Shown piece after piece: positions 31,880 through 33,220 of a stretch of DNA of 41,654 nt. Position 1 is the stretch's first letter; each line of letters begins with the position of its first letter. Below the pieces are notes generated by a model. The model made no database searches, was not told the DNA's origin, and was given only the letters and a program-made list of their open reading frames with translations. The DNA is taken from IMG/VR virus record IMGVR_UViG_2531839667_000017, positions 1 through 41,654 of that record; one strand, written 5' to 3'. Position numbers and translations under genes: made by a program. Origin of the DNA: a virus. Lineage: Duplodnaviria > Heunggongvirae > Uroviricota > Caudoviricetes.

Positions 31880-32272
31880 ATGGGTCAGGAAGAAAAATAT
31901 GAGCTTAAAAAGCTCATTGGAGAAGACGCCATAGAAGAAATTGCAGCATTAACAACAGCTATAAAGAATATTAGGTATGCGCTAAATACGCTTATCTCCT
32001 CATGCGACAAAAATAGCAGGGAATTTTTGATACTTGGCGCAGCTCTAGGAATAGTTGATGCGGCAACGCTTCACCTAATTACTCATGACGATATTCTTAT
32101 TGAGCCGTATGAAACATTACTGCTTGTCAGGCAAAAAATGGCTGATGCCGCAGCAAATGGAGACCTTCAACTTTACATCGACTTAAGGAAAGTATTAAGG
32201 CGAATGGTCAAAACTGAAGGAGATATCCCCCTGAGCGATGCTAAACAAGGAATACAAGCAAAGCAGGAATGA
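31880..32272 (+). CDS. hypothetical protein (130 aa)
   Basis: ATG 31880-31882 with GAGG SD; starts 2 nt after the N stop; no recognised motif. Confidence 0.55.
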   Translation: MGQEEKYELKKLIGEDAIEEIAALTTAIKNIRYALNTLISSCDKNSREFLILGAALGIVDAATLHLITHDDILIEPYETLLLVRQKMADAAANGDLQLYIDLRKVLRRMVKTEGDIPLSDAKQGIQAKQE

Positions 32273-32332
32273 CCATTATCCTGATGAAGTATCGAAAGCA
32301 CAGTCAGCAATTAGCAAAGCTCTTGGGGAAGA

Positions 32333-32494
32333 ATGATGAATAGGAAATACATTGTTGAAGTTATAGAGCGAGAAACAAAAGAAGTAATTAAACATTTCGA
32401 ATTTGATAATTATAGAAAAGCTGACCGCGTAGAAGAAGGATTGTTGCGACAAAGTAATCTCGAAAAATTTGATGTTGTCATGCGATGCGAATAA
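32333..32494 (+). CDS. hypothetical small protein (53 aa)
   Basis: ATG 32333-32335 with purine-rich SD; AT-rich; found by reading the sequence. Confidence 0.4.
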   Translation: MMNRKYIVEVIERETKEVIKHFEFDNYRKADRVEEGLLRQSNLEKFDVVMRCE

Positions 32495-32587
32495 GCGCCT
32501 ATAGCAGATTTACGAGTCTGCTATGTGAGCAATGTCGCTCGTAACTAAACAGGAGCCGACTTGTTCTGATTATTGGAAATCTTCTTT

Positions 32588-32611
32588 GCCCTCCAGTGTG
32601 AGGGCTTTTTT
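32588..32611 (+). terminator. intrinsic terminator in the pL operon (tL-like)
   Basis: GCCCTC-cagtgt-GAGGGC hairpin followed by TTTTTT. Confidence 0.7.
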
Positions 32612-32677
32612 ATATGCATACCAATAACGCTTCACTCTAGGCGTTTTCGTTATGCAATCAAACAGAAGGAGCATCCT

Positions 32678-32848
32678 ATGCAACAGTTCGCTATTGCAGG
32701 GGCGGCATCGGTTCGCCCTTTCAACCCGATTTTATCGGTACAGCATTCACGAAAAAATATTTTAACCGGAGCAGACTTTAAACAACCAAGAATGAAAAGT
32801 TTGCTCGAAAAGCTTTGGGATATTTTGAAACGACAAGGCCGTCCATGA
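32678..32848 (+). CDS. cIII: CIII-like protein (FtsH inhibitor)
   Basis: 56 aa; MQQFAIAGAA...SLLEKLWDILKRQGRP parallels lambda CIII MQYAIAGWPVAG...; AAGGAG SD. Confidence 0.7.
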   Translation: MQQFAIAGAASVRPFNPILSVQHSRKNILTGADFKQPRMKSLLEKLWDILKRQGRP

Positions 32849-32952
32849 GTTTTACAGATAACTGGTCAGACGAAGAATTCATTCGTCAGATGAAAGAAAT
32901 GCTCAATCAGCACAAAGAACAGGAGAAAGATGATGATTCTGACTCTGAATGA
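32845..32952 (+). CDS. hypothetical small acidic protein (35 aa)
   Basis: ATG overlaps the cIII stop (ATGA); low confidence. Confidence 0.3.
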   Translation: MSFTDNWSDEEFIRQMKEMLNQHKEQEKDDDSDSE

Positions 32953-33220
32953 TAAGCGTGAAATATCGCAAATCATCGCAAATTTTACTGATGATGATTA
33001 CGAACGAATCAACAGTGAAGTTGATCGCCTCTGCAAACGTTGCGACCCAATAAGCGAAATGCTTCGCTCATATAAACCAGATGAACACACTAAGGACGCT
33101 ATCGACTGGCTGGAAGATGATGACTGTGACTATCAGGAAAAAGCCGCTGAATGGTTCTGGGATGCAATAACCGAAAGAGTTAAGGCTGAATATGCCTTCG
33201 CAATTGTCAACGACGGATGA
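32930..33220 (+). CDS. hypothetical acidic early protein with its 3' end replaced by IS-derived codons
   Basis: 96 aa; last four codons (VNDG, stop) lie inside the IS left end; the reconstructed pre-insertion reading frame would end ...[15 protein letters not shown] with its stop overlapping the recT ATG. Confidence 0.55.
   Translation: MMILTLNDKREISQIIANFTDDDYERINSEVDRLCKRCDPISEMLRSYKPDEHTKDAIDWLEDDDCDYQEKAAEWFWDAITERVKAEYAFAIVNDG

Follow-up and report, generated by a model that had tools for sequence, protein, structure and literature searches.

Small genes downstream of N in a lambdoid prophage: a mosaic early-left segment with a PreS/LPR1 homologue, a divergent cIII-like peptide and an interrupted recombination-module gene

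What is encoded by the run of small genes that follows N in a lambdoid prophage, and is any of it new? The question is raised by positions 31880–33220 of the Caudoviricetes record IMGVR_UViG_2531839667_000017 (IMG/VR), whose 41,654 nt make up the window analysed here. A first-pass annotation, made from the letters alone, had described this interval as a part of the pL operon lying after N, with co-oriented, partly coupled and mostly unassigned genes, a terminator and a recognisable cIII. We read the interval as the accessory segment nearest N in the early-left (pL) operon of a mosaic lambdoid prophage, and put the probability of this explanation, taken jointly and as a whole, at roughly 0.78. 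The interval is ordinary lambdoid mosaicism built from widespread, already catalogued families and not from novel genes, and its novelty is low; "unassigned" remains apt in that homology assigns no function to these genes, but not for the families themselves, which are widespread and held in PHROG.

The prophage occupies the lambda attachment site beside ybhC in a chromosome of E. coli type, as comparison of the attachment-site flanks revealed, and its closest uninterrupted relative is a prophage of E. coli AR Bank #0346 (NZ_CP066366), with 97.6% identity over 31164–33204. Because cI, a pL-like promoter and a nut site that aligns with that of HK620 lie upstream (Table 1; the end of the annotated HK620 pL aligns with window position 31421), the interval can be placed in the N-proximal part of the early-left operon, as had been proposed. 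All six open reading frames (ORFs), for N and for products of 130 amino acids (aa), 53 aa, the cIII-like protein, 35 aa and 96 aa, are indeed on the plus strand, and each matches a PHROG family (E from 7.5e-16 to 3e-79), so they are not chance ORFs. The translational coupling described earlier is likewise real: a GAGG lies within the end of N and the 130-aa frame starts 2 nt past the N stop, ATGA overlaps occur at 32333–32336 and 32845–32848, and the 35-aa and 96-aa ORFs share 23 nt.

Only one element of the interval has a lambda counterpart that is both exact and characterised, and to judge by its sequence it is an RNA. What had been noted as "a terminator" does have a hairpin and a U-run, but these belong to tL2a, the 3′ end of a homologue of the small RNA (sRNA) PreS/LPR1. 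Window positions 32527–32605 are identical at 79/79 nt to lambda 34011–33933 (complement), in the ral–ea10 spacer, and the U-tail alone differs. The tL2a terminator is formed by the stem GCCCTC-loop-GAGGGC at 32588–32605 followed by TTTTTT, and in the predicted fold of the 88-nt window sequence (z = −3.1) an open central stretch separates a 5′ stem from the terminator hairpin with its U-tail. The earlier statement that nothing besides cIII has a lambda counterpart thus holds for the proteins (there is no Ral, SieB, Kil or Gam) but missed the exact counterpart of PreS/tL2a. In lambda, LPR1/PreS is an Hfq-dependent sRNA of ~88 nt, processed to ~68 nt, with tL2a as its 3′ end; it is made in the lytic cycle and pairs with the dnaA–dnaN mRNA, which raises DnaN and so promotes phage replication (bioRxiv 10.1101/2024.10.31.621285; the same points are summarised in a 2025 review, PMC12197685). 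Given the identity, the window PreS would be expected to bind Hfq, to be processed and to up-regulate dnaN by seed pairing. The block is present in 395 phage records, almost always unannotated, and a search of 29000–36500 against Rfam at E ≤ 1, a database with no family for PreS, gave no match. With PreS unannotated in ~395 phage records and not in Rfam, annotators will go on calling it "a terminator".

Comparison of the PreS flanks in lambda, SEN22 and 80 IMG/VR loci revealed that the hairpin just 5′ of PreS (ATAGCAGA-loop-TCTGCTAT in the window) occurs as three unrelated sequence alleles, one in the window and mEp043, one in lambda and one in SEN22, each of them hairpin-forming. PreS, which hardly varies, serves as a mosaic anchor, and at least three different continuations are found downstream of the U-tail. 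Four loci (L008, L024, L028 and L035) have a different terminator in place of the tL2a hairpin, and in HK022 (L012, 7445–7602) an inserted IS903 lies directly against the 5′ half of the hairpin that precedes PreS, a second case of an insertion sequence at the border of this conserved block.

Past the U-tail, window positions 32616–32654 are 95% identical over 40 nt to lambda 33523–33484, just upstream of lambda cIII. Because this lambda cIII leader directly follows PreS, the window merely lacks ea10 relative to lambda at this point. The 56-aa frame behind the leader was called a recognisable cIII, and its match to phrog_550 agrees with that; but it has no Pfam Lambda_CIII match, and only an N-terminal motif and a C-terminal half-helix are common to it and lambda cIII. 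BLASTP against lambda cIII returned QFAIAG only. When lambda, HK620 and mEp043 cIII were aligned with this protein and members of its class found in phages of Salmonella, Hafnia and Erwinia, the sequences were collinear, and an N-terminal M-Q-[YF]-A-I-A-G and a C-terminal amphipathic K-L-x-D-I-L-x-Q-G-x-P were common to both groups. The window protein also has the N-terminal motif, the length of ~50 aa and the place after tL2 and before kil/Rec genes that go with membership in the cIII family. It resembles lambda and HK022 cIII in both end motifs, in operon position and in its lambda-like leader, but differs from them by an 11-residue, Gly/Pro-containing insertion, NILTGADFKQP, within the region equivalent to lambda residues 14–37, which in lambda are essential and sufficient (PMC1838920). 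Its hydrophobic moment is high only at about residues 36–56, compared with 14–41 in lambda. By sequence it belongs to neither published class (lambda, HK022) and forms a divergent third one, found in 43 phage records from five genera, where the copy of Hafnia phage Pocitis76 is annotated as "CIII-like protease inhibitor". A role as FtsH inhibitor is plausible, and this 56-aa class, a naturally occurring variant with a split helix, could be used to ask what FtsH inhibition needs.

Between N and PreS the interval is occupied by two protein genes and a remnant. The 130-aa ORF listed in the first-pass annotation proves on comparison to be composite. Window positions 31811–32234, from the end of N through hkaQ, are 98.6% identical to HK620, the identity stopping 8 nt short of the hkaQ stop, and the product matches phrog_7374 over profile positions 1–120 of 120. 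As the HK620 homology ends at 32234 and sequence of the phrog_1273 type begins at 32235, a mosaic joint lies at 32234/32235, and the product as read from the sequence is a chimera of HkaQ residues 1–118 and 12 unrelated residues, these last 12 codons being an out-of-frame remnant of another gene. That gene, of the type of Sf101 gp34 and mEp043 gp46 and nearer to Sf101 gp34, survives in a different frame that overlaps the HkaQ frame.

HkaQ-family genes directly follow N in three diverged lineages, at 2 nt after N in the window, in HK620 and in the loci encoding the relative P0030, and after an N-like gene in locus L020; homologues of 64% and 52% identity also directly follow an N-type gene. In two lineages (HK620 and L021) a convergent SieB-like gene is next to hkaQ. 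The family is very narrow, an exhaustive HMMER search of 1.84 billion representatives with the 130-aa protein having returned only seven matches. Two large repeat proteins (P0036 and P0037) that came up as relatives were discarded as spurious, since what they have is a short IPHDDxLVE-like motif repeated six times. The conserved motif LHLI(T/P)HDDxLxEP of HkaQ falls in a low-confidence loop of a predicted helical model that is itself weak (predicted local distance difference test, pLDDT, 71; predicted template modelling score, pTM, 0.41). The RefSeq/PGAP name "antitermination N domain protein" for the family member WP_072658121.1 (L006) is unsupported: the 130-aa ORF has no N_peptide or other Pfam/NCBIfam match, its N-terminus is acidic, and in that same record the real N is labelled "hypothetical protein". 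The name looks like an artefact of annotation. A search of the literature on hkaQ and the RefSeq accessions found no functional data.

The 53-aa protein that follows is of the mEp043 gp45 family, with a gene 98.7% identical to that of mEp043 and a product ~96% identical to gp45. Homologues of 75–98% identity occur in Escherichia, Atlantibacter and Cronobacter and are confined to Enterobacteriaceae, and the gp45-like gene is always the final one ahead of the cIII region. The location of HkaQ and the 53-aa protein suggests that they could be anti-defence or host-takeover cargo of a hypervariable slot between N and PreS. Alternatives found between N and tL2a are ral and sieB in lambda, a Nun-like gene in mEpX1, ral in Sf101 and SieB-like genes in HK620 and L021; the GC content is low (0.39–0.43); HkaQ has been kept right after N at 52–64% identity with its LHLI(T/P)HDD motif conserved; and the length of the 53-aa gene is constant across three genera. 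This is, however, guilt by location only: scans with PADLOC, Pfam, NCBIfam and PDB sequences gave no match, the pTM of the HkaQ model is low, and HK620 constructs with gfp beside hkaQ are uninformative about its role, so that we consider such cargo functions possible but rather unlikely.

The 35-aa ORF (orf35) is also chimeric, only its first 18 codons being conserved with a longer gene of HK022 and Sf101. These 18 residues are the start of a 52–61-aa ORF located after kil in HK022 and Sf101 (gp29), and the sequence diverges past a mosaic joint after codon 18 (~32898); a prophage of extraintestinal pathogenic E. coli (ExPEC) matches the window up to that same point (~32898) and then continues into an Erf module. 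The chimera is present in 80/80 related IMG/VR loci. We rejected its identification as Kil, as there is no Pfam Lambda_Kil match and it is unlike the Kil proteins of lambda, HK620 and mEp043 in alignment; the window has no kil homologue. It may be a leader made by recombination, perhaps only coupling into the next gene.

That next gene, which we call X (phrog_3486), had been described as a 96-aa acidic ORF. The insertion that shapes it went unnoticed: an IS100 copy sits 30 nt ahead of the X stop, so that the last 10 X residues are replaced by VNDG and the last four codons plus the stop of the 96-aa ORF are insertion sequence (IS). Native X (WP_000604104.1, for example) has 102 aa and an isoelectric point (pI) of 4.6, probably starts at the second ATG (32933), and is predicted to be all-helical (pLDDT 74, pTM 0.59). 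IS100 is flanked by a 5-bp target duplication, GCAAT, at 33200–33204 and 35159–35163, is 100% identical to IS100 copies of enterobacterial plasmids and now separates X from recT by 1.95 kb. The insertion looks recent because the duplication is intact and the junction was found in 0/5,426 complete E. coli genomes.

An interrupted gene among chimeric ones raises the question of whether the whole segment has lost its function and is decaying in a cryptic prophage, with its chimeric ends, remnant and IS as marks of erosion. Truncation of X and splitting of the operon by IS100 fit that explanation, as do the 32-codon gene remnant, the two chimeric ORFs and the fact that orf35 differs from its relatives at non-synonymous positions only. 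Against it, the order N–HkaQ (130 aa)–gp45–cIII with the same joints is found intact elsewhere, both in other genomes and in related phages that form plaques, IS100 has the recent look described above, recT keeps its own Shine–Dalgarno (SD) sequence and start, the other ORFs are all full length, PreS is 100% conserved, and the 2 kb would plausibly be traversable by N-modified polymerase. We therefore hold decay to be improbable.

What does X do? It is always the first gene of a recombination module, and in every lineage examined its stop overlaps or abuts the start of the next gene. It heads such modules in phages of E. coli, Salmonella, Cronobacter, Erwinia (two phages) and Pantoea and in L020: X–RecT–MuGam-like in 80/80 E. 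coli-type loci and Pantoea phage PA-1, X–RecT–Exo in Cronobacter phage ENT47670, Erwinia phage Midgardsormr38 and L020, and X–ExoVIII(–RecT) in SEN22 and phiEt88. A related-locus search started from a narrow X alignment returned only relatives of at least 97% identity. In Midgardsormr38 cIII is followed by a kil-like ORF, X and RecT–Exo, parallel to cIII–kil–gam–bet–exo of lambda, and in PA-1 by a kil-like ORF, X and RecT–MuGam-like. Natural variants, with the orf35 N-terminus fused to the X C-terminus via a shared DDD-coding repeat (P0025), X residues 1–48 joined to an unrelated C-terminus (P0022) or residues 1–78 fused to a DUF551 domain (P0009), suggest that the N-terminal helical hairpin of X is a separable unit.

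Two functions may be considered for X. It could be a functional analogue of lambda Gam, perhaps even distantly related to it in structure; as a small, acidic and helical dimer it would block RecBCD and leave the adjacent RecT or exonuclease free to act on phage DNA ends. Its position is that of gam (Midgardsormr38, and X–RecT–Exo in ENT47670 and L020), and several X modules have no recognised anti-RecBCD gene, among them that of SEN22, for which Table 1 of PMC12315714 lists no anti-RecBCD gene and 0 Chi sites. No Chi site (GCTGGTGG) occurs on either strand of the window, where ~1 would be expected by chance, and this too fits a Gam analogue. Size and charge are comparable (102 aa and pI 4.6 for X; pI 5.5 for lambda Gam, with 89 residues in the crystallised GamS chain), and there is a local match of DDDxxYQExxAE to DDDxxFQExxAE. 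Yet Foldseek against PDB and BFVD did not recover Gam, the hhalign probability was 0.9% (0.13% with a broader profile), none of nine family members had a Pfam Gam match, and the E. coli and Pantoea modules already contain a MuGam-like protein, taken in PMC12315714 to be what provides HK140 with its anti-RecBCD function. As X has no significant sequence or profile similarity to lambda Gam (GamS, PDB 2uuz), we do not file it as Gam, and consider the analogy unlikely.

Alternatively, X could assist the phage recombinase or exonuclease as an accessory or mediator factor, with a role like that of P22 Arf or T4 UvsY, rather than an inhibitor of a host nuclease. That the X stop overlaps or abuts the next start in each of these lineages implies co-translation with RecT or ExoVIII; a co-occurring MuGam-like protein would make a second anti-RecBCD function redundant; P22-type modules carry the small accessory gene arf at the same place before erf; and T4 UvsY is among the Foldseek matches, though not significantly (E 6.9). 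On the other hand, X has neither sequence nor significant fold similarity to Arf or UvsY, and its neighbour varies, mostly RecT but ExoVIII in SEN22 (which PMC12315714 classes as having no annealing protein) and phiEt88, so that a specific protein partner is not obvious. We judge this role doubtful, and roughly equal to the Gam analogy. The broader proposition, that lambdoid recombination modules have in X a component so far unrecognised, be it a recombinase mediator of a new kind or a fifth anti-RecBCD type folded like Gam, is put forward only tentatively; a 2025 survey of 325 lambdoid phages gives X no assignment. Because X is the conserved, coupled head gene of several types of module with no assigned anti-RecBCD function, it is a cheap and well-defined candidate for assays of RecBCD inhibition or recombineering enhancement, and the sole lead here worth an experiment.

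Several results weigh against the interval being a working early-left accessory segment. Remote-homology searches with HkaQ, the gp45-like protein and X were all negative. The cIII-like protein had no match to PF02061 at E ≤ 1, and its insertion appears to split the region essential in lambda, so that FtsH inhibition would not be assured. Relative to four relatives, orf35 has 0 synonymous and 3–5 non-synonymous differences and therefore no sign of purifying selection, and IS100 may have left the element partly defective. Scans of all ORFs of the interval against Pfam, NCBIfam, PADLOC and PDB sequences returned nothing except N (PF25694); together with the Kil alignment and the Gam hhalign comparison they agree with the earlier impression that no ORF here has confident homology to a characterised early protein of the lambda family.

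If the interval is nonetheless what its position and upstream signals indicate, an accessory segment of the early-left operon, then induction or infection would start transcription from pL, N would be loaded at nutL, and the antiterminated polymerase would pass the internal terminators to yield a transcript ordered N, HkaQ family, gp45 family, PreS/LPR1 sRNA, cIII-like, orf35 and X. The HkaQ-family helical protein, its 3′ end rewritten by recombination, would be co-translated with N; the transcript would include the Hfq-dependent PreS/LPR1 ending at tL2a; the cIII-like peptide would presumably inhibit FtsH and so stabilise CII; orf35 would probably serve mainly as a coupling leader; and X would head the recombination module X–RecT–MuGam-like.

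Table 1. Positions of the early-left features in the 41,654-nt window and the evidence for each.
Feature	Positions	Strand	Evidence or remark
cI (S24 peptidase)	29663–30367		
pL-like promoter (TTGCCA-17-TAAAGT)	31386–31414	+	consensus scan
nutL-like site	31461–31506	+	annotated HK620 nutL aligns here
boxA GCTCTTTAA	31461–31469	+	part of nutL-like site
boxB-like hairpin TGGCT-GAAA-AGCCA	31493–31506	+	putative boxB, from sequence
N antiterminator, 90 aa, phage 21/H-19B/HK620 type	31605–31877	+	PF25694 N_peptide 3.4e-32; phrog_271
HkaQ-family protein, 130 aa, chimeric 3′ end	31880–32272	+	phrog_7374 3e-79
Remnant of 32 codons, 3′ end of Sf101 gp34/mEp043 gp46-type gene	32238–32336	+	phrog_1273
53-aa protein, mEp043 gp45 family	32333–32494	+	phrog_6949 7e-40
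Hairpin just 5′ of PreS	32501–32524	+	fold
PreS/LPR1 sRNA homologue ending in tL2a	32526–32613	+	lambda identity, fold
cIII leader with tL2b-like hairpin (32626–32645) and SD AGGAG	32616–32677	+	terminator-like match; aligns with HK620 tL2B
cIII-like protein, 56 aa, divergent third sequence class	32678–32848	+	phrog_550 1e-21
orf35, chimeric small acidic ORF	32845–32952	+	phrog_17766 7.5e-16
X, 5′ part; acidic helical protein, first recombination-module gene	32930–33204	+	phrog_3486 1.7e-52
96-aa ORF as read in the window (X plus IS sequence)	32930–33220	+	
IS100 (IS21 family), 1954 bp	33205–35158	−	alignment with uninterrupted relative, IS21-type inverted repeats
istB	33271–34053	−	
istA	34050–35072	−	
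Displaced X 3′ end, containing recT SD and overlapping recT start	35159–35200	+	
recT (single-strand annealing protein)	35197–36108	+	PF03837 2.7e-32; phrog_148
Gp157/Mu Gam-like end-protection family protein	36086–36574	+	PF05565 1e-37; phrog_253 3.5e-54

Outside the interval, the product of 36086–36574 is 95% identical to mEpX1 gp33, and here Pfam Sipho_Gp157 and the PHROG "Mu Gam-like end protection" are one and the same protein family. Farther downstream, near xis/int, a 241-aa ORF (37619–38344) may be a moron because it has a weak match (E 2.3e-5) to the LprI (lysozyme inhibitor) domain. On the other side, between cI and the left operator (OL)/pL, there are genes for products of 120 aa (30636–30998, phrog_13858) and 42 aa (31014–31142, phrog_12503), with a terminator-like hairpin nearby at 31164–31181; as they are located where lambda has rexAB, both are candidates for exclusion genes expressed in the lysogen. 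In L001, the closest relative, a Clp-fold serine protease is found in their place.

Set beside known systems, the window follows the overall order and logic of the lambda pL operon, N–(sieB)–ral–PreS/tL2a–ea10–cIII–kil–gam–bet–exo: in both, N comes first and is followed by an accessory slot, PreS ending at tL2a, a cIII leader, a cIII-type peptide and a recombination module. Unlike lambda, the window has no homologues of ral, sieB, ea10, kil, gam, bet or exo; its accessory slot holds HkaQ and the gp45-like gene, its cIII is divergent, its recombination module is X–RecT–MuGam-like, and IS100 has inserted. HK620 is alike in the 2-nt spacing between N and hkaQ, in homology through hkaQ codon 118 and in having tL2A/tL2B upstream of cIII, but there the 120-aa HkaQ ends in ...PLTK, the convergent, SieB-like hkaP comes next, and lambda-type cIII and kil are present, whereas in the window the joint adds 12 other residues, and the gp46 remnant and the gp45-like gene take the place of hkaP. 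In mEp043, as in the window, gp45 is ATGA-coupled to the frame upstream (gp46) and the same hairpin allele precedes PreS; of the gp46-type partner, just the last 32 codons remain here. Finally, mEpX1, HK140 and vB_EcoP-611R6 have the same order cIII (56 aa)–orf35–X–RecT–MuGam-like, with 97–98% nucleotide identity over 32527–33204 and 35159–37191, and are uninterrupted where the window carries IS100 inside the 3′ end of X.

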